From contig NC_014205.1 in the NCBI RefSeq assembly GCF_000092465.1, forward strand, positions 1,050,001 to 1,082,000: DNA of 32,000 nt, in the 5' to 3' direction. The notes under the pieces are model-generated. The model was not told the DNA's origin and ran no database searches. It saw only the letters and a list, made by a program, of their open reading frames with translations. This DNA is from Staphylothermus hellenicus DSM 12710. GTDB taxonomy: Archaea > Thermoproteota > Thermoprotei_A > Sulfolobales > Desulfurococcaceae. Positions 15,182-26,876 of the stretch are shown here, piece by piece. The position numbers and the translations under genes were made by a program. Numbering within the stretch: position 1 is the stretch's first letter; every line of letters begins with the position of its first letter.

Positions 15182-17827
15182 TTGCCAATAGAGTTTGCTA
15201 AGCACAAGTATAGTGATAGAAAAATATTATCTATGCTTAGACCATATGTTGCTGAATGGTTTAGTAAAACATATAAGAAATTTACACCACCTCAGAGAAT
15301 GGCTATACCATTTATTAAAAATGGATACAACGTACTTATATCAAGCCCTACAGGTACTGGTAAAACATTAGCTGTTTTTCTAGGAATACTCGATAATCTT
15401 TATGCAGAAGCTGAAAAAGAGGGAAAGCTTCCGGAAGGTGTTTATGTAGTCTATGTGAGTCCTCTGAGAGCTTTAAACAATGATATGCGTAGAAACTTAT
15501 TAAAACCTATACATGGGATCAGGGAAGCCGCAAAGAAACACGGCATCGATCTCCCAGAGATAAAAGTGGGTGTTAGAACAAGTGATACAAGCCCGTATGA
15601 GAAGCAGAAAATGATAAAGGATCCCCCACATATATTGATCACGACACCTGAAAGCTTAGCAATTGCACTAAATGCTCCAAGGTTTCGGGAACGGTTGAAA
15701 AATACTAGAATAATAATCATAGATGAAATACACGAGCTAGCAAATAGTAAGAGAGGAAGTCATCTAAGCCTAAGTATTGAAAGATTAGAAAACCTAGCTG
15801 GGAAACCGCTTCAAAGAATAGGGTTAAGTGCAACAATAGCTCCTCTAGTAGAGGTGGCTAAGTTTCTAGCTGGTTATAGAGATGATGGCGAACCTAGGGA
15901 TTGCTTAATTGTTGATGCAAGATTTTCGAAGCCAATAGATATTAAAGTTATTGCTCCCGTCAAGGATCTAGTACATGCTTCTGCAGAGGAAATAAATAAT
16001 GCAATATATTCTACACTTGTAAAGCTCATTAGAAAGCATAGGACAACACTGGTCTTCACAAACACACGTAGTGCTACAGAAAGGGTTGTATATAAACTTA
16101 GAAAGATCATGGAGAAAGAAAGAATAGTTGACATAGACGAGATAGAAGCCCATCATAGTAGTTTGAGTAGAGATGTACGGCTTGGAATTGAAGAAAAACT
16201 TAAGCAGGGAAAGCTTCGCGTAATAGTAAGCTCTACAAGCCTAGAATTAGGAATAGATATAGGATATATAGACCTAGTAGTACTGCTAAGTAGTCCAAAA
16301 AGTGTTTCAAGACTTCTACAAAGAATTGGGAGAGCAGGTCATCATATTAGACAAGTAAGTAAGGGAAGAGTAATAGTTATTGATAGAGATGATCTAGTTG
16401 AATGCGCTGTTCTGGTAAAAGCTGCTTATCAACACAAAATTGATAGGGTACGCATACCTAAGAATCCACTAGACGTCCTCGCACAACACATTGTAGGTTT
16501 ATCTCTTGAAAAGAAATGGGATATTAGAGAAGCCTATAAATTGATTAAGAGAAGCTATTCTTTTCATACCTTATCATGGAATGATTACATTAATGTTCTA
16601 AAATATCTCTCAGGCATGTATGGAGACTATTTTGAACACGCCAAAGTCTACGCTAAGATCTGGTTTGACGAAAACGAGGGAGTCTTTGGTAGAAAAAGAA
16701 CTGCAAGAATGATCTATTATCAAAACATCGGCACTATACCGGATGAGAGCAAGGCACATGTATTCACAATTGATGGAAAATATGTTGGAGACCTAGAAGA
16801 AGCGTTTGTAGAATATTTGATTCCAGGAGATCTATTTGTCCTGGGTGGACGCGTATATGAATACATTAGGAGTATAGGGTTTAAAGTATATGTTAAACCA
16901 GCTGATGGGGCAAGACCAACTGTTCCAAGCTGGTTCAGTGAAATGCTTCCATTAGCTTATGATTCAGCACTAGAAGTAGGGAAATTTAGAAGACTTGTAG
17001 CTGAGAAAATCATGAATCTTCCACGAAGCCAAGTGATTGATTGGTTAAGAAAAGAGTATAGATTGCAGAAATATGCAGCTGAGTCAATATATGGTTATAT
17101 TAAGGAACAATTATTGTTTACAGGAGGAATAATTCCTAGTGATAAGCTCATAATGATCGAGATCTTCGACGAGCCTAGGAGAAGAAACATTATAGTGCAC
17201 AGCTTATTCGGCAGAAGAGTTAACGCTGCATTATCTAGAGCTTACGCATATATAATAAGTAATGAACTAGGCGTGAACGTGAAGATAACAGTGACAGATA
17301 ATGGTTTCATGCTTGCATTTCCAGTTAGGAAAAACATTGACTGGATTCAAGCCTTTAAGAAACTAACACCTGAAAATATCGAGGATATTTTAAAGAAAGT
17401 TCTTAGAAGAACAGAAATGCTTAAAAGAAGATTTAGACACTGCGCAGTAAGATCATTCATGATTCTCCGAAGATATAGAGATAGAAAGAGAAGTGTTCAT
17501 AGACTACAAATAAATGCTGAGGAATTATTAAGAGCCATAGAGGATCTGCCTGACTTCCCCGTTTTAAAGGAAACATATAGAGAGATATTAGAGGATTACA
17601 TGCATATAGAAGCTGCTAAGGAAGTATTAGATAATGTTAGGAAAGGCAATATAAAAATAACCGTGATAGGACCTAACAACGTACCGAGCCCGTTCTCGCA
17701 TAGTATAGTTGTTCATGGATATAGTGATGTCGTATTAATGGAGGATATGAGAAAATTGTTGAGGCTTCTCCATGAAAGAGTTATAGAGTATCTTAAGACG
17801 AGAAAAACCAGTTTAGCAAATGAATAA
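15182..17827 (+). CDS. lhr: Lhr-type (large helicase-related) superfamily 2 ATP-dependent helicase
   Basis: 881 aa with a TTG start. Helicase motifs are SPTGTGKTLA, DEIHEL, SATI, HHSSLS, LELGIDIG and QRIGRAGH. The long C-terminal region is of the DEAD/H-associated type. Confidence 0.9.
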   Translation: MPIEFAKHKYSDRKILSMLRPYVAEWFSKTYKKFTPPQRMAIPFIKNGYNVLISSPTGTGKTLAVFLGILDNLYAEAEKEGKLPEGVYVVYVSPLRALNNDMRRNLLKPIHGIREAAKKHGIDLPEIKVGVRTSDTSPYEKQKMIKDPPHILITTPESLAIALNAPRFRERLKNTRIIIIDEIHELANSKRGSHLSLSIERLENLAGKPLQRIGLSATIAPLVEVAKFLAGYRDDGEPRDCLIVDARFSKPIDIKVIAPVKDLVHASAEEINNAIYSTLVKLIRKHRTTLVFTNTRSATERVVYKLRKIMEKERIVDIDEIEAHHSSLSRDVRLGIEEKLKQGKLRVIVSSTSLELGIDIGYIDLVVLLSSPKSVSRLLQRIGRAGHHIRQVSKGRVIVIDRDDLVECAVLVKAAYQHKIDRVRIPKNPLDVLAQHIVGLSLEKKWDIREAYKLIKRSYSFHTLSWNDYINVLKYLSGMYGDYFEHAKVYAKIWFDENEGVFGRKRTARMIYYQNIGTIPDESKAHVFTIDGKYVGDLEEAFVEYLIPGDLFVLGGRVYEYIRSIGFKVYVKPADGARPTVPSWFSEMLPLAYDSALEVGKFRRLVAEKIMNLPRSQVIDWLRKEYRLQKYAAESIYGYIKEQLLFTGGIIPSDKLIMIEIFDEPRRRNIIVHSLFGRRVNAALSRAYAYIISNELGVNVKITVTDNGFMLAFPVRKNIDWIQAFKKLTPENIEDILKKVLRRTEMLKRRFRHCAVRSFMILRRYRDRKRSVHRLQINAEELLRAIEDLPDFPVLKETYREILEDYMHIEAAKEVLDNVRKGNIKITVIGPNNVPSPFSHSIVVHGYSDVVLMEDMRKLLRLLHERVIEYLKTRKTSLANE

Positions 17828-21463: not shown

Positions 21464-22667
21464 TTAGTTCGGCTATTCTTCTAATCCCCTCCTCTATTAT
21501 TTCGGGGGGTGGGTAACTGAAGCTTAAACGCATACTATTAGCGCCGGTGCCGTCAGTGTGGAAGCTTTGTCCTGGAACATATGCTACCTTATACTTGTCT
21601 ATAGCTTTTCTCAGTAGTTTCCCTGTATCGAATCCTTCTTTATTTACGTATACGAATACAAAGAATCCTCCAACCGGCTCTGTATGCCATACGTTTTCGG
21701 GGAAATAATCCTTTATGGCCTTAATCATTGCGTCGCGTTTTTTCTTATAGAATGGGGATAATTCGTGTGCATGCCGAGTCACCAGCCCTGTCCTAATAGC
21801 TTCAGCTACTATGTACTGGTTTAGTGTGGGACTATGTAGATCCATGTATTGTTTAACTAGTTCTAGTTTTCTCGTCAATTTTTCCGGGGAGGCGATCCAG
21901 CCTATTCGTAGTCCTGGTGCAAGTATTTTGCTTACTGTACTCATATATAATACTCGGTCTTCACTATCATATGCCTTGATGGGTGAAACATCTACTGTTT
22001 CATCATATACAAAGTAACTATATGGATCATCCTCTACTACAAGTAAATCATATTTATTAGCTATTTCTATTAAGTGCTTCTTCCTATCAGGCGGCATAGT
22101 GGTTCCAGCGGGATTTTGTGAAACAGGTATTGTATATATGAATTTTATTTTCTCGCCTTCACTAACTAGTTTTTTAACTGTCTCCTCCAGCAAATCAGTT
22201 CTCATACCTTGTTTATCTATTTTTATGCCTACTAGACGAGCACCCCTGTTCTTGAAAGCTCCTAGAGCTGCAAGGTATGATGGGTTTTCAGTAATCACTA
22301 TGTCTCCCGGATCTAAAAGCGTTCTAGCAACTAGGTCTAGAGCTTGCTGACTACCTGTTGTAACAATGATATTCTCAGCATCAACACTAATACCTCTGCT
22401 TTCTAAGAGGAAGTGTGAAAGCATTTCTCTTACTTCCAATATTCCCTTTGTTTCACTATATTGAAGTGCTTGATCACCGTATTCTATAATCATTCTCCTA
22501 GCGATTTCTGCTAGTTCGTCCCGTGGAAATGTTCTAGGGTCGGGTATGCCGCCGGCTAAGCTTATAACGTCTTTTCTCTTCCTAATAATTGCCAGGATCT
22601 CCCTGATCTCTGATGCTTTAATATTTTTAGCTGTAGAACTGAAGAACCTATCGTAAGCAGGCAACAT
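21447..22667 (-). CDS. PLP-dependent class I/II aminotransferase (2-aminoadipate/aromatic aminotransferase-like)
   Basis: SxSK lysine motif (STVSKILAPGLRIGW), NPSYLAALGAF, QNPAGTTM and MRLSFSY are present. The ORF stays open up to 22772, but family N-termini begin near MLPAYDRFFSSTAKNIKASEIREIL, so the start is placed at 22667. Confidence 0.85.
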   Translation of the reverse strand: MLPAYDRFFSSTAKNIKASEIREILAIIRKRKDVISLAGGIPDPRTFPRDELAEIARRMIIEYGDQALQYSETKGILEVREMLSHFLLESRGISVDAENIIVTTGSQQALDLVARTLLDPGDIVITENPSYLAALGAFKNRGARLVGIKIDKQGMRTDLLEETVKKLVSEGEKIKFIYTIPVSQNPAGTTMPPDRKKHLIEIANKYDLLVVEDDPYSYFVYDETVDVSPIKAYDSEDRVLYMSTVSKILAPGLRIGWIASPEKLTRKLELVKQYMDLHSPTLNQYIVAEAIRTGLVTRHAHELSPFYKKKRDAMIKAIKDYFPENVWHTEPVGGFFVFVYVNKEGFDTGKLLRKAIDKYKVAYVPGQSFHTDGTGANSMRLSFSYPPPEIIEEGIRRIAELIKNEN

Positions 22668-24300
22668 GTGTTCACCAATTAATAATATAACTGGGGACGA
22701 GTCTAAAAGACTATCGATGGGAAACGGTGAGATAGTATTGGAATATAATATTGTTAGGAAAAAGATCAGCAAGAAACTGGTTAGGATAGCACTCGTTTAT
22801 CCCAGCACATATGAATCCATGCTTTCCAGCATAGTTACCCATCTAATTTATTATATGTTGAACGAATTATACGATGAAGTTTATGTTGAGAGATTTTATT
22901 TGAAAAAACTATTTGGAAGAGGGGAAGAACCGAGAAGTGTGGAGACAAACAGCCCGTTGAAGGATTTTGACCTAATAATAACGAGTATTCATTATGAACC
23001 AAACATTTCTGGATTATTACGGATTCTATATTCTTCTGGGCTGGAAATTTATCGGAATAAAAGACGGATTCCAATTATTGCTGGAGGGCCAGGTGTAATA
23101 GCTAATCCTCATCCATATGAAGATTTTATTGATGCCTTTATTATAGGTGAAGCCGAGGATACATTACCCGGAATAATAGGGGATTTCATAACCTATAAGG
23201 ATAATAAAAATGGTTTCCTAGAAAAGATATCATCATATAAATATGTTTATGTCTCAGACTATACGAACAGGCCGGTACGTAGGGAATGGACAAAAAATCT
23301 TGACGCAGCCTATTATCCTATAAGACAAATACAAAATACGGAGATCGAGCCAGTATATGGACATGGTTTTTTATTAGAGGTTAGCAGAGGATGCAGGTTT
23401 TGGTGCAGATTCTGTATGGAGTCTAGATTGTTTAAACCATATAGGAGGAGAAGTAATAATAAATTGTTCAAGCTAATAAATAAAGGATTATCAGTTAATC
23501 TTCTAGATCGCGTTATTATTTACTCACTACTCTTCCCCGGAGGAAAAGAAGATACTAAGTTATTAGAATACCTTGTTTCAAAAGGAATTAAGGGTTCACT
23601 GCCTTCTCTAAGGGTTGAATATATTAATGATTACTTCCTAGAACTAGTAAAGGATCTTGGACAGAAAAATCTAACTATAGCTCCTGAATCATTCAATACA
23701 TTTGTTCAAAGAATTTTTGGAAAATATTTCGATCTCAACATAGTTAATGAATCAATAGATAAAATAATAAGTAAAGGTTTTAACTTGAAACTCTACATTA
23801 TTTTCGGATTAAAAAATGAGTCTTTAGATGATAATAAAGTAAATATAGATGCTCTAAGAAAAATAGCTAAGAAGATTAATGAGAAGAATTTGAAGCTAAC
23901 TATTACGCTTAATCCTTTGGTTCCCAAACCTAAAACTGTTTTTCAATGGTTTGGAATGATCGATCTTGGAAAAGCAAAAAATATTATTCGATATTATCGC
24001 GGAGAACTTAAAGGATTAGTTAATACTAGACCATTATATGTTAATTGGGCATGGATACAAGGTAGTATTGCATTGGCTGATAAAAGTATTTCCAAGGTAT
24101 TAGCTGAGTGGAGTCTTGGCGGAGGCGATCTTGGTAGTTGGAGGAGGGCTCTGAGAAATAATAGTTATAGTACATCATATTTATTCAACGGTTATAGGTA
24201 TGATGAACCTCTACCTTGGGATGACATTGTTCTAGATAAGTATGTTGAGAAAACACTTGAAAGCGAATACTATGCTTTGGCTAGGCTTTTAAATGTTTAG
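22666..24300 (+). CDS. Radical SAM protein with an N-terminal B12-binding-like domain
   Basis: 544 aa. The CxxxCxxC cluster motif lies in EVSRGCRFWCRFCMES. The N-terminal flavodoxin-like domain includes RIALVYPSTYESM...IIAGGPGVIANP. The true start may be ATG at 22717 (MGNGEIV...). Confidence 0.85.
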   Translation: MCSPINNITGDESKRLSMGNGEIVLEYNIVRKKISKKLVRIALVYPSTYESMLSSIVTHLIYYMLNELYDEVYVERFYLKKLFGRGEEPRSVETNSPLKDFDLIITSIHYEPNISGLLRILYSSGLEIYRNKRRIPIIAGGPGVIANPHPYEDFIDAFIIGEAEDTLPGIIGDFITYKDNKNGFLEKISSYKYVYVSDYTNRPVRREWTKNLDAAYYPIRQIQNTEIEPVYGHGFLLEVSRGCRFWCRFCMESRLFKPYRRRSNNKLFKLINKGLSVNLLDRVIIYSLLFPGGKEDTKLLEYLVSKGIKGSLPSLRVEYINDYFLELVKDLGQKNLTIAPESFNTFVQRIFGKYFDLNIVNESIDKIISKGFNLKLYIIFGLKNESLDDNKVNIDALRKIAKKINEKNLKLTITLNPLVPKPKTVFQWFGMIDLGKAKNIIRYYRGELKGLVNTRPLYVNWAWIQGSIALADKSISKVLAEWSLGGGDLGSWRRALRNNSYSTSYLFNGYRYDEPLPWDDIVLDKYVEKTLESEYYALARLLNV

Positions 24301-25391
24301 ATGGATGCCTTAGCTATGCTAGCTATTAATCCTATATATGCAACTAGTACTAGTGCTGATGCTATTTCTGATAAATATTTTGATTTTAGAGATTCTAGTC
24401 TGAGAATTCCTATTACTTCTTTATTCATAATGGATAATTCATTGATGTTAATAGTTAGAGGAAATATTATTCTTGAGTTAATAGATACGGTTATTTTTCT
24501 AAATTTAGTGTATGCATTGTATTGTCGAATATCTGATCTAAGCGCATATTCTGGTTTAATACCTATGGATGAATAAAATGATGTTAGAACACCAAGTATT
24601 ATGGGTTGTAATGAGTTATCTATTGGTTTTAAATCTTCTAATGCATTATATGCTTCGAGGAATAGATTAGGCTCAATATTGTAGTCTCCAAGTTTTCCTT
24701 TATGAATATCAGTATTTATACTGGTATCAAATACTAGGTATGGAGTAATAACTGGTATTCGAGACCCTATAGTTTTCACCAATAAATTATTGAGGTCTTT
24801 TGCCTCAACCCATTTTGTCAGGGTTTTACAGACTCCATTTTCTCCGATCATAACAGTGTTTATTATATGTCCCGCACCTCTACCGAAACATAATATCTTT
24901 AGTTTTCCGGATTCATTAATAGTTTGTATTTCTGATTCCACTATTCTACATAGATCAATCGGTCTTCTTCTAGGTGAAATAGTGAATAATCTTAACCAGC
25001 ACCTATTTATTTTTACGCGTATACGTGTATCTCCAATAATTTTAGCTCCCAGATCCACTGCTTCCATTAATGCTGGATAAATCGATGCGAGAGGAATATA
25101 TTTCTCATCCCTTACATAGTATCCTTCTATTTTTAACGGGCCTATTACCGTTACGGGTACTTGGATTGCTCCTATGGATTTATACGATATTTTTCCCTCT
25201 GTTTCTACAAAGTCTAGTATGGATGAACCGGTTGCTGAAAGTGATATGTTGAGTTTTTCTTCGAGGATTTTTCTTCTTAGAAGTGCGGCTATATTTTGGT
25301 TTTCTACTAGCCCATCTATTTCTTCTAAGGGTTTTTTAGATGATTTAAGTTTTAATAAAAAATCCTTTATAATAGATCTACGTTTCCCCAA
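24297..25391 (-). CDS. HMG-CoA reductase (class I) homologue lacking the canonical catalytic motifs
   Basis: 364 aa. NIAALLRRKILEEKLNISL..SILDF, IGAIQVPVTVIGPLKIEG and the C-terminal LSEIASALVLVAYIGLIASIA parallel conserved HMGR blocks. It has PLASIYPALMEA instead of P(L/M)ATTEGxLxAS, FGRGAGHIIN instead of TGDAMGxNM, and ININELS instead of GTVGGGT. Its start overlaps the DUF35 stop by 14 nt. Confidence 0.7.
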   Translation of the reverse strand: MGKRRSIIKDFLLKLKSSKKPLEEIDGLVENQNIAALLRRKILEEKLNISLSATGSSILDFVETEGKISYKSIGAIQVPVTVIGPLKIEGYYVRDEKYIPLASIYPALMEAVDLGAKIIGDTRIRVKINRCWLRLFTISPRRRPIDLCRIVESEIQTINESGKLKILCFGRGAGHIINTVMIGENGVCKTLTKWVEAKDLNNLLVKTIGSRIPVITPYLVFDTSINTDIHKGKLGDYNIEPNLFLEAYNALEDLKPIDNSLQPIILGVLTSFYSSIGIKPEYALRSDIRQYNAYTKFRKITVSINSRIIFPLTININELSIMNKEVIGILRLESLKSKYLSEIASALVLVAYIGLIASIAKASI

Positions 25392-25800
25392 CTGTTTTTA
25401 TCACCGGTCTATAAGCTATAGCGTAATGGATTAGACCAGCTTCCCGGTCCTGATTTATTCTTCTTAGAACGGGTTCTAATAAAATTCCCTCCTTAAGTTC
25501 TTCGGGCAATACATCAGTTATTGGTGCAAGAATTTTGACGTGTGTTTTAACTGTTTCAACTATACCAATTATTCTCGGCCTCTTATCTTCGAATCCAGCA
25601 GGTGCAGTAAATATTGTTGTCCATGTAATCAGTTTTGCTTTTTCTTTATCCAAGTATATTTCCTCGAGATCTTTTGAGCCACAATATCTGCAGACGCTTG
25701 ATGGAGGATAATTTATTCTTCCACATTTTCTGCATTTAACAGCTTTTAATCTATAATGAGATATTCTTTCACGCCAAAACCTAGGTATTGAGAACTGCAT
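25378..25800 (-). CDS. DUF35 family protein (zinc ribbon plus OB fold), the scaffold subunit of the archaeal thiolase/HMG-CoA synthase complex
   Basis: 140 aa. The rubredoxin-like CRKCGRINYPPSSVCRYCGS segment is followed by an OB-fold-like region. It lies immediately downstream of the HMGCS gene. Confidence 0.85.
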   Translation of the reverse strand: MQFSIPRFWRERISHYRLKAVKCRKCGRINYPPSSVCRYCGSKDLEEIYLDKEKAKLITWTTIFTAPAGFEDKRPRIIGIVETVKTHVKILAPITDVLPEELKEGILLEPVLRRINQDREAGLIHYAIAYRPVIKTVGET

Positions 25801-25817
25801 AGTTAATCAATCCTCCA

Positions 25818-26876
25818 TTATATTCTCTTTATTAGTCCCCTATATTTTGCATATAATGCATAGTCAATATAATGTTTCCTAGCTAAGTAGTCATCGACTC
25901 GTGGTGCTTTATCTTGTTTCTCAAGTATTTTATCAGTAACAATAATACTGTAAGCATCGCTTCCCGCACCACTTCCAAACGGTGCCAACAATATTCTTTG
26001 CCCAGGTTTAGCGTTGTCGAGAACTCTGGATAAACCTATTAAGGCCGATGAGTTGTAGCTGTTACCAATATATGGTGTAACTAGTCCTGGAAGTATTTTC
26101 TCTTTTGGAAAACCTAGTCTTCTCCCCACAGTTAATGGGAATTTGCCGTTGGGTTGATGAAATATTGCATAGTCGAAATCACCTGGTTTAAGCCCTGTTT
26201 TCTCGAATAATCCCTTTACAGCGTTTATTATGTGGTTAAAATATGCTGGTTCACCCGTGAATCCTTCGCCGTGAAGTGGGTAGGGAACATGTGCTCTACG
26301 CCAAAAATCAGGTGTATCGGTTACATAGGTATAGCTTGCCTCAAAAACCGCTGCAGCTTGGTTTGCAGGCCCTGTTATAAGGGCTGTTGCTGCAGATGAT
26401 GCTGTATATTCAAGTATATCTCCTGGATTAGCTTGTGCAGTATCAGAACCGATTACCAAGGCATATTTAACCATACCAGATGCTACTGCAGCAATACTTA
26501 TTCTTAACGCTTCACTTGCTGCTCTACAAGCAAACTCTAGGTCTGAAGCCATAGTATCAGGTGTGATCCCAAATGCTTCAGCAATAATTGTTGCTGAAGG
26601 CTTGACAGCGTAGGGTTTTGATTCTGTTCCGAACCATACAGCACCTATTTCCCCAGGATCGATCCCTGCCCTGGCCAAGGCATTTCTAGTGGCTTCCCAT
26701 GCAAGAGTTACTGCGTCTTCATCGCTTCCAGCCACAGATTTTTCTTCAACCATTAATCCACGAGGAGTTTCCGGTGCAAAACCCCATATTCTCGTTATTT
26801 CCTCTAGCTTAAGTCTCCACCGAGGAATATATGATCCCCAACCAATTATTCCTGCTTTCTTCTCAGGAATTTCCAT
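25818..26876 (-). CDS. Archaeal-type hydroxymethylglutaryl-CoA synthase
   Basis: 352 aa of the thiolase-like condensing-enzyme fold. Motifs are [11 protein letters not shown], the active-site Cys context [19 protein letters not shown] and [10 protein letters not shown]. The size and the DUF35 neighbour match archaeal HMGCS rather than thiolase. Confidence 0.8.

Follow-up and report, generated by a model that had tools for sequence, protein, structure and literature searches.

Pseudoenzymes, the dead homologues of enzymes, are retained as allosteric, scaffolding, or regulatory partners. The protein considered here, which we call the HMGR-like protein, is a 364-amino-acid (aa) relative of class I 3-hydroxy-3-methylglutaryl coenzyme A (HMG-CoA) reductase (HMGR) from the archaeon Staphylothermus hellenicus DSM 12710. 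Its gene lies in a 32,000-nucleotide (nt) stretch of the genome (NC_014205.1, positions 1,050,001 to 1,082,000), referred to below as the window, directly after genes for HMG-CoA synthase (HMGCS) and a DUF35 protein. As is the case for pseudoenzymes in general, it is a clear homologue of an enzyme, has lost the catalytic residues, is under purifying selection, and is encoded beside genes of the parent pathway. With archaeal class I HMGR (EC 1.1.1.34; TIGR00533/PF00368) it shares end-to-end homology, the three-domain fold, the slot after DUF35, and a stop/start overlap with that gene. Two regions are highly similar to the enzyme, namely the N-terminal ~120 aa with the IGAxQxP...GPL dimer-interface strands and the C-terminal helix. 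Unlike the enzyme, the HMGR-like protein is ~50 aa shorter and lacks the catalytic residues, the residues that contact CoA and HMG, and both NADPH motifs. We consider it probable that the class I HMGR of this operon turned into a pseudoenzyme in the Staphylothermus lineage and was kept for a non-catalytic role, with catalysis provided elsewhere. In the literature, we found no description of an HMGR pseudoenzyme, and nothing on the HMGR-like protein or on the distribution of HMGR classes in Desulfurococcaceae.

The other described system of relevance is the archaeal channeling complex of thiolase, HMGCS, and DUF35, a three-component assembly without HMGR (PMC12960953, citing Vogeli et al. 2018). 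The HMGCS and DUF35 of this complex are the two genes immediately upstream of, and translationally linked to, the HMGR-like gene. In contrast to the complex as described, the Desulfurococcaceae operon is without thiolase, and an association of the HMGR-like protein with its neighbors is hypothetical.

Homology to class I HMGR and the lost active site

A preliminary description of this locus, made from the sequence alone, had proposed that the HMGR-like protein is related to class I HMGR. Profile comparison and a structure model confirm this homology along the whole length of the protein. Against 20 canonical Thermoprotei class I HMGRs, hhalign gave an end-to-end alignment (99.7%, E = 5.8e-27, 348 columns, Q5-361/T9-404). 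The AlphaFold2 (AF2) model (predicted local distance difference test [pLDDT] score, 81; predicted template modeling [pTM] score, 0.75) has the HMGR three-domain fold, and its best Foldseek match is 6hr8 (E = 1.2e-14, TM score of 0.56, ~410 columns), ahead of human, plant, and class II enzymes. The family profile matches the archaeal HMGR structure 6hr7 (E = 1e-12, positions 10-128); 6hr7 and 6hr8 are both the HMGR of Methanothermococcus thermolithotrophicus.

Ordinary profiles recognize only the first third of the protein, although the homology spans its full length. The Pfam match to PF00368 covers aa 39-120 only (E = 7.5e-9, 35.5 bits; gathering score, 27), and the match to TIGR00533 covers aa 17-120 (E = 6.8e-14), where a score of 51.6 bits falls below the equivalog cutoff of 441.8. 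For comparison, the canonical protein P0021 scores 468 bits with this profile and the eroding HMGR of locus L034 (see below) scores 422 bits. The class II profile, TIGR00532, with which true class II enzymes from related loci reach 417-497 bits, gave no match to the HMGR-like protein at E <= 1. There was no similarity to other Pfam or NCBIfam families. The gene and its three parts are as follows.

24297..25391, minus strand: HMGR-like gene, degenerate class I HMGR ortholog, 364 aa, TTG start (profiles, AF2/Foldseek, hhalign)
25032..25391, minus strand: N-terminal module, aa 1-120; N-domain helices, IGAxQxP...GP dimer-interface strands, and PLA block; contains Tyr70 and Tyr105
24702..25031, minus strand: former NADPH-binding (S) domain, aa 121-230; AGHIIN at aa 173-178; cis-loop deleted after ~aa 201
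24297..24701, minus strand: rewritten C-terminal part of the L-domain, aa 231-364 plus stop; Lys279 and TININEL; C-terminal helix kept, His flap absent

The N-terminal module (aa 1-120) is the sole part that sequence profiles still recognize as HMGR. The S-domain region keeps its beta-alpha-beta secondary structure in the AF2 model. The invariant SLSATGSSILDF / IGAIQxP segment (aa 51-77) has the lowest confidence in the monomer model (pLDDT of <50), which is compatible with a part that is ordered only within an assembly.

Residue roles in HMGR (human numbering) were taken from PMC7503714, and the residues were mapped from the family profile and from hmmalign and hhalign alignments to canonical HMGRs. 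The changes, in sequence order, are listed below.

Glu of ENxIG: Tyr70
Glu559 of P(L/M)ATTEG: Tyr105, invariant in the family, with PLASIYPALMEA replacing PLATTEGALVAS
CoA contacts Ser565, Asn567, and Arg568: Ala111, Asp113, and Leu114
NADPH motif DAMGMN: AGHIIN (FRTGDAMGMN becomes FGRGAGHIIN)
cis-loop SGNxCxDKKPS with Lys691: 12-residue deletion, where hmmalign places no residues
HMG contacts Lys735 and Asn755: Asn249 and Leu266
Asp767 of ATGQD: Lys279, invariant (SIGIKPEY)
NADPH motif GTVGGGT: TININEL
His866 of the C-terminal flap: absent; the chain ends at the column of P0021 residue ~404, before His408

All of these replacements are invariant within the HMGR-like family (alignment of 14 sequences), and the chain end before the catalytic His is common to all members. 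The C-terminal part also carries a family-specific invariant block, YNAxEDLKPIDNSLxPxxLGxxxSxYxxxGxKPEYxLRS. The alignments reproduced every motif replacement that had been read by eye in the preliminary description, including Tyr at the position of the catalytic Glu. They also revealed changes beyond those, i.e., the cis-loop deletion, Asp767 to Lys279, the ENxIG Glu to Tyr70, and Asn567/Arg568 to Asp113/Leu114. In the profile alignment of the Glu, Asp, Lys, and His columns, all four catalytic residues are lost. At the level of sequence and model, the HMGR-like protein is shown to be unable to reduce HMG-CoA by the known mechanism.

The operon and its HMGR slot in relatives

The three-gene layout is as first described: the gene coordinates, the 14-nt overlap, the single apparent transcription unit (as judged from the sequence) of HMGCS, DUF35, and the HMGR-like gene, and the lack of an adjacent thiolase all hold. 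Besides the HMGR-like gene, the unit and its immediate context comprise the following features.

25818..26876, minus strand: HMGCS, archaeal type, first gene of the unit (NF003274, 566 bits against a cutoff of 244; TIGR00748, 512 bits)
25812..25816, minus strand: GGAGG, Shine-Dalgarno-like, ahead of the DUF35 ATG (25800) (sequence reading)
25378..25800, minus strand: DUF35 protein, zinc ribbon and OB fold (Pfam zf-ChsH2, E = 2.7e-12; OB_ChsH2_C, E = 9.6e-10)
25400..25405, minus strand: GGTGAT, Shine-Dalgarno-like, within the 3' end of DUF35, 9 nt upstream of the HMGR-like TTG (sequence reading)
25378..25391, minus strand: 14-nt overlap of the end of DUF35 (stop) and the HMGR-like start (open reading frame [ORF] coordinates)
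22666..24300, plus strand: convergent B12-binding radical SAM gene, TIGR03960-like, context; syntenic marker of the HMGR slot across Desulfurococcaceae

The HMGCS stop is at 25818-25820, and DUF35 begins 17 nt past it; at the other end, the radical SAM 3' end and the HMGR-like stop overlap by 4 nt (24297-24300). The HMGCS is 94% identical to its ortholog in Staphylothermus marinus F1, and the DUF35 protein is of the small-subunit type found in the archaeal thiolase/HMGCS/DUF35 complex. An oligopeptide ABC permease sits upstream of HMGCS. With a local thiolase profile, no thiolase was found adjoining the operon or among the window ORFs of at least 80 aa, and neither the window nor the ~20-kb neighborhoods of relatives (L001-L008) contain a thiolase, a second HMGR, or a class II HMGR.

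To place the gene in context, one genome per species was scanned with the window HMGCS, yielding 80 named loci, and all ORFs of these loci were scored against canonical-HMGR, HMGR-like family, class II HMGR, and thiolase profiles. The order HMGCS-thiolase-DUF35-canonical HMGR, with the identity of the thiolase confirmed, occurs in Acidilobaceae, Pyrodictiaceae, Caldisphaera, Hestiella, Thermodiscus, and others. The Desulfurococcaceae block, the same as that in the window, is HMGCS-DUF35-(slot)-radical SAM(-)-aminotransferase-...-DUF2192-Lhr-GT2, with thiolase outside the operon; the radical SAM and aminotransferase pair is syntenic with the HMGCS-DUF35 operon across this family. Canonical HMGRs that directly follow DUF35 (L013, L015) or thiolase-DUF35 score 657-754 bits against the canonical profile. 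The slot is occupied in different ways (MAG, metagenome-assembled genome).

L013, L015 (Desulfurococcaceae MAGs): fully canonical HMGR, all motifs, 659-682 bits
L009: HMGR canonical as far as the sequence runs, gene interrupted by the contig end
L034: eroding HMGR with GDTIGPN, GQE for GQD (D767E), and no His; 422 bits, just under the cutoff
P0014, 397 aa: strongly eroded HMGR with ATIKG and DHG; 250 bits
Window, L001-L008, L030: 364-aa HMGR-like family; 52 bits
P0028 of the cultivated Desulfurococcus mucosus DSM 2162 (CP002363), 254 aa, and P0038, 274 aa: remnants with no Pfam match on record
Thermogladius complete genomes and several MAGs: empty slot, DUF35 abuts radical SAM

In identical synteny, these states form a graded series from L034 (422 bits) through P0014 (250) and the HMGR-like family (52) to the 254- and 274-aa remnants and the empty Thermogladius slot. 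The eroding HMGR of L034 has a dN (nonsynonymous divergence) about twice that of its neighbors. The D. mucosus remnant lies at L093:8001-8765, and the 274-aa version of a related lineage lies at L094:8001-8825; the remnants form small conserved families (P0026/P0028/P0030 and P0038/P0044).

Because a canonical HMGR fills the same slot in the nearest relatives (L009, L013, L015), the window gene is, judged by gene order, the positional ortholog of the class I HMGR of the operon, diverged in place. We therefore reject an inserted paralogue: what the preliminary description had called a "paralogue in that operon" occupies a slot identical to that of the canonical class I HMGR in these three loci. 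The overlap of DUF35 with the HMGR-like gene was correctly noted but is not special to the dead copy: stop/start overlaps link the gene to HMGCS and DUF35 in all loci of the HMGR-like family and likewise link the canonical enzyme across Desulfurococcales. With canonical HMGRs, the overlap of the DUF35 stop and the HMGR start is 1 nt in L015, L029, and L042, and the overlap is 17-20 nt in L013, L034, and L024. Thus, the coupling of the window gene to DUF35 is inherited, and the predicted translational coupling is an ancestral arrangement. Similarly, the lack of an adjacent thiolase is real but reflects a family-wide rearrangement, as distant relatives have HMGCS-thiolase-DUF35-HMGR. In one further locus (L027:12626-14001), a canonical in-operon HMGR is split by a frameshift into overlapping ORFs (310 and 195 aa), which points either to a pseudogene of recent origin or to an error in the MAG assembly.

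The HMGR-like family comprises 13 homologues of 359-368 aa with 47-90% identity, the closest being Smar_1337 of S. marinus F1, and it accounts for only 2 of the 50%-identity clusters in a set of 1.84 billion representatives. NCBI annotates the protein as "hypothetical protein," and JGI calls one member HMGR. None of the 14 aligned sequences is disrupted, and the 77 invariant columns are distributed along the entire protein. Between the window and S. marinus, where synonymous divergence is unsaturated (dS of ~0.41), dN/dS is 0.110 for the HMGR-like gene, compared with 0.067 for HMGCS, 0.086 for radical SAM, and 0.209 for DUF35. A pseudogene is ruled out because dN/dS is low and all ORFs of the family are intact, and these sequence comparisons show that the gene is kept by purifying selection.

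It could still be argued that the gene is a functionless relic, slowly decaying and not disrupted so far. The progression of the slot from canonical to eroded, shortened, and absent resembles progressive loss, and the HMGR-like protein evolves about four times faster than HMGCS within the clade (dN of 0.42-0.50 versus 0.10). However, its amino acid divergence equals that of the neighboring radical SAM enzyme, and dN/dS (0.11, at unsaturated dS) is similar to that of functional neighbors. Furthermore, 14 ORFs have remained intact at 359-368 aa down to 47% identity with 77 columns invariant, and the start overlap and Shine-Dalgarno motif are kept. We regard a relic as extremely improbable.

Apparent recurrent inactivation and the probable source of HMG-CoA reduction

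Other Thermoprotei lineages appear, from the weakly supported HMGCS phylogeny and from their canonical neighbors, to have inactivated their in-operon HMGR separately. In an Acidilobaceae MAG, a dead HMGR (P0027, 357 aa) follows HMGCS-thiolase-DUF35, where relatives have canonical enzymes. A further dead HMGR, P0018 (354 aa), comes directly after HMGCS. Further degenerate derivatives include P0025 (with P0027, from Acidilobaceae MAGs, 357-359 aa) and P0015 (361 aa). The neighbor-joining (NJ) tree of HMGCS places the P0027 and P0018 lineages apart from the HMGR-like family. Like the window protein, the other degenerate Thermoprotei derivatives have the same operon position, the N-terminal module, lost catalytic motifs, and intact ORFs that are conserved per lineage. 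Between lineages, the C-terminal two-thirds of these proteins show no sequence relationship. The short derivatives have lost the S-domain, whereas the family of the window keeps three domains. All HMGR derivatives keep the N-terminal ~110-120 aa, i.e., the helices, LSxxxSxIxDF, IGAxQxP...GP, and PLA. A protein of different makeup, P0031 (399 aa), starts like a canonical HMGR for ~130 aa and continues as the C-terminal part of TruD; it is either a genuine fusion or the product of a chimeric assembly.

In Tiamatella-type Desulfurococcales (loci L036, L039, and L091), a conserved class I remnant of 226-238 aa follows DUF35. It consists of the N-terminal module and a short new tail, which is itself conserved (NPTIxDIxxIxxGxExP). 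A class II ("degradative"-type) HMGR (TIGR00532, 497 bits) lies next to the remnant, convergent on the HMGCS-thiolase-DUF35 operon, and this pairing fits replacement of the class I enzyme. The regions with the class II HMGR and the class I remnant are as follows.

L036:12606-14558
L039:12615-14633
L091:3001-4923

Class II HMGRs are widespread in Thermoprotei among the matches listed for the Tiamatella class II query; two of the class II proteins, P0352 and P0340, lie in assemblies other than those that carry the HMGR-like family. In Chloroflexota/Anaerolineae MAGs (L067-L080), an archaeal-type HMGCS, 55-58% identical to that of the window, is followed by thiolase and DUF35 and directly preceded by a class II HMGR, an arrangement suggesting that the archaeal-type module was transferred as a whole between domains.

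Desulfurococcaceae must possess an HMGR encoded away from the operon, because the free-living D. mucosus and Thermogladius have HMGCS and no catalytic HMGR in the slot. By parsimony from these two, the reductase of Staphylothermus is probably also encoded outside the operon.

A proposed non-catalytic role and its alternatives

The explanation that we favor would run as follows. The ancestral Desulfurococcales mevalonate operon would have had the order HMGCS-(thiolase)-DUF35-HMGR, and the window ORF would be its HMGR gene. In the Staphylothermus lineage, this HMGR would have kept its fold and a nearly unchanged N-terminal ~120 aa while losing the cis-loop and the flap, the four catalytic residues, both NADPH motifs, and the residues in contact with CoA and HMG. 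The inherited stop/start overlap, which is present in the sequence, would keep the protein co-expressed with HMGCS and DUF35. Reduction of HMG-CoA would fall to an HMGR encoded elsewhere, which would be of class II (the situation in Tiamatella and Thermofilum) or another enzyme of class I. The dead copy would have been retained because of a non-catalytic role inherited from the ancestral enzyme, most likely in the N-terminal/dimer-interface module, e.g., in assembly with or regulation of early mevalonate enzymes. Such a role would be useful yet dispensable, given that the gene has been reduced to 254-274 aa or deleted in some relatives. That inactivated copies have repeatedly been retained speaks for a non-catalytic role of some kind, and partnership with the thiolase/HMGCS/DUF35 complex is an attractive hypothesis in view of the conserved, predicted co-translation with DUF35.

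Several observations weigh against this explanation. A second HMGR was not found for Staphylothermus with class I and class II queries among the best 120 matches listed per query, which extended to at least 63% identity for the Acidilobus class I query and at least 72% for the Tiamatella class II query and included none from Staphylothermus, Desulfurococcus, or Thermogladius. The complete loss of the gene in Thermogladius shows that the role is not essential. Among the extended HMGR matches checked, there was no DUF35-HMGR fusion; these are PilZ fusions or have unrecognized extensions. In the HMGCS NJ tree, bootstrap support is 27-32% for the degenerate clade and for its union with the canonical clade, which itself has 88%; the topology is suggestive, but with this weak support we place no weight on exact sister relationships, and the number of independent inactivations is approximate. 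Finally, invariant polar residues (Tyr70, Tyr105, Lys279, Glu281, Tyr282, Arg285, Asn323, and Glu325) occupy former active-site positions and could mean a re-tooled ligand site as opposed to a purely structural role.

A re-tooled site of this kind is the main rival. The HMGR fold would have been neofunctionalized for a new ligand or as a new enzyme (for a CoA thioester, mevalonate, or HMG), e.g., as a sensor or regulator or with different chemistry, and would not be a passive scaffold. Decay would give random residues, yet Tyr, Lys, Glu, Arg, and Asn are invariant at catalytic and ligand positions, and the most conserved family-specific block falls exactly at the HMG/Asp767 helix of HMGR. The dN/dS of 0.11 and the retention of three domains at 364 aa, where 254 aa suffice in other lineages, point the same way. 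On the other hand, the glycine-rich NADPH motifs and CoA contacts are gone, no similarity to any other Pfam or NCBIfam family is apparent, and the far smaller remnants or empty slots of relatives argue against an important new enzymatic step. We consider neofunctionalization unlikely, although it merits more weight than the other alternatives to a pseudoenzyme.

It is also conceivable that the HMGR-like protein is the only functional HMGR of the organism, working with radically different catalytic residues. HMGCS is intact, so HMG-CoA must be consumed, and the gene is under purifying selection; in addition, JGI labels one family member HMGR and no other Staphylothermus HMGR is among the matches listed, but with only the best 120 matches listed, the searches for a second HMGR had little power. 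Moreover, the four catalytic residues, cis-loop, NADPH motifs, CoA and HMG contacts, and C-terminal flap are all lost, and the TIGR00533 score of 51.6 bits compares with a cutoff of 441.8. Relatives with the same synteny and a 254-aa remnant or an empty slot must make mevalonate via a gene elsewhere. We judge a sole, unconventional reductase to be very improbable.

Returning to a pseudoenzyme with a non-catalytic role, we tentatively extend the idea to Thermoprotei class I HMGR as a whole, which possibly has a second, non-catalytic job, with the N-terminal module making it a fourth, stoichiometrically co-translated member of the thiolase/HMGCS/DUF35 metabolon or a regulator of it. A second job of this kind would explain why dead copies or N-terminal remnants are kept in the slot after takeover by another HMGR (e.g., a horizontally acquired class II enzyme). 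The repeated retention of the N-terminal module points to a previously unrecognized non-catalytic function of archaeal HMGR that may link to the HMGCS/DUF35 complex and that is directly testable with thermostable proteins.

Pfam-based pipelines tag the HMGR-like protein as HMG-CoA reductase, as JGI does for one member. Metabolic reconstructions of Staphylothermus, Desulfurococcus, and related MAGs may thus assign the committed step of archaeal lipid synthesis to a protein that is dead and miss the enzyme that performs it. The neighborhood is also of general interest in that almost all the stages through which an essential enzyme gene may pass (from canonical through eroding, dead yet conserved, and truncated to deleted) are seen in one place, providing a natural series for the study of pseudoenzyme origin.

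Two minor observations concern related proteins. In P0107, P0130, and P0083, full canonical HMGR domains are fused to an N-terminal PilZ (cyclic di-GMP [c-di-GMP] receptor) domain, a sequence feature suggesting that mevalonate synthesis may be under c-di-GMP control in some organisms. In both the window (15182-17827) and S. marinus, the syntenic Lhr-type helicase is 877-881 aa long; in two related MAGs (L004:17025-20087 and L005:16842-19922), it carries an intein (PF14890) and reaches 1020-1026 aa.

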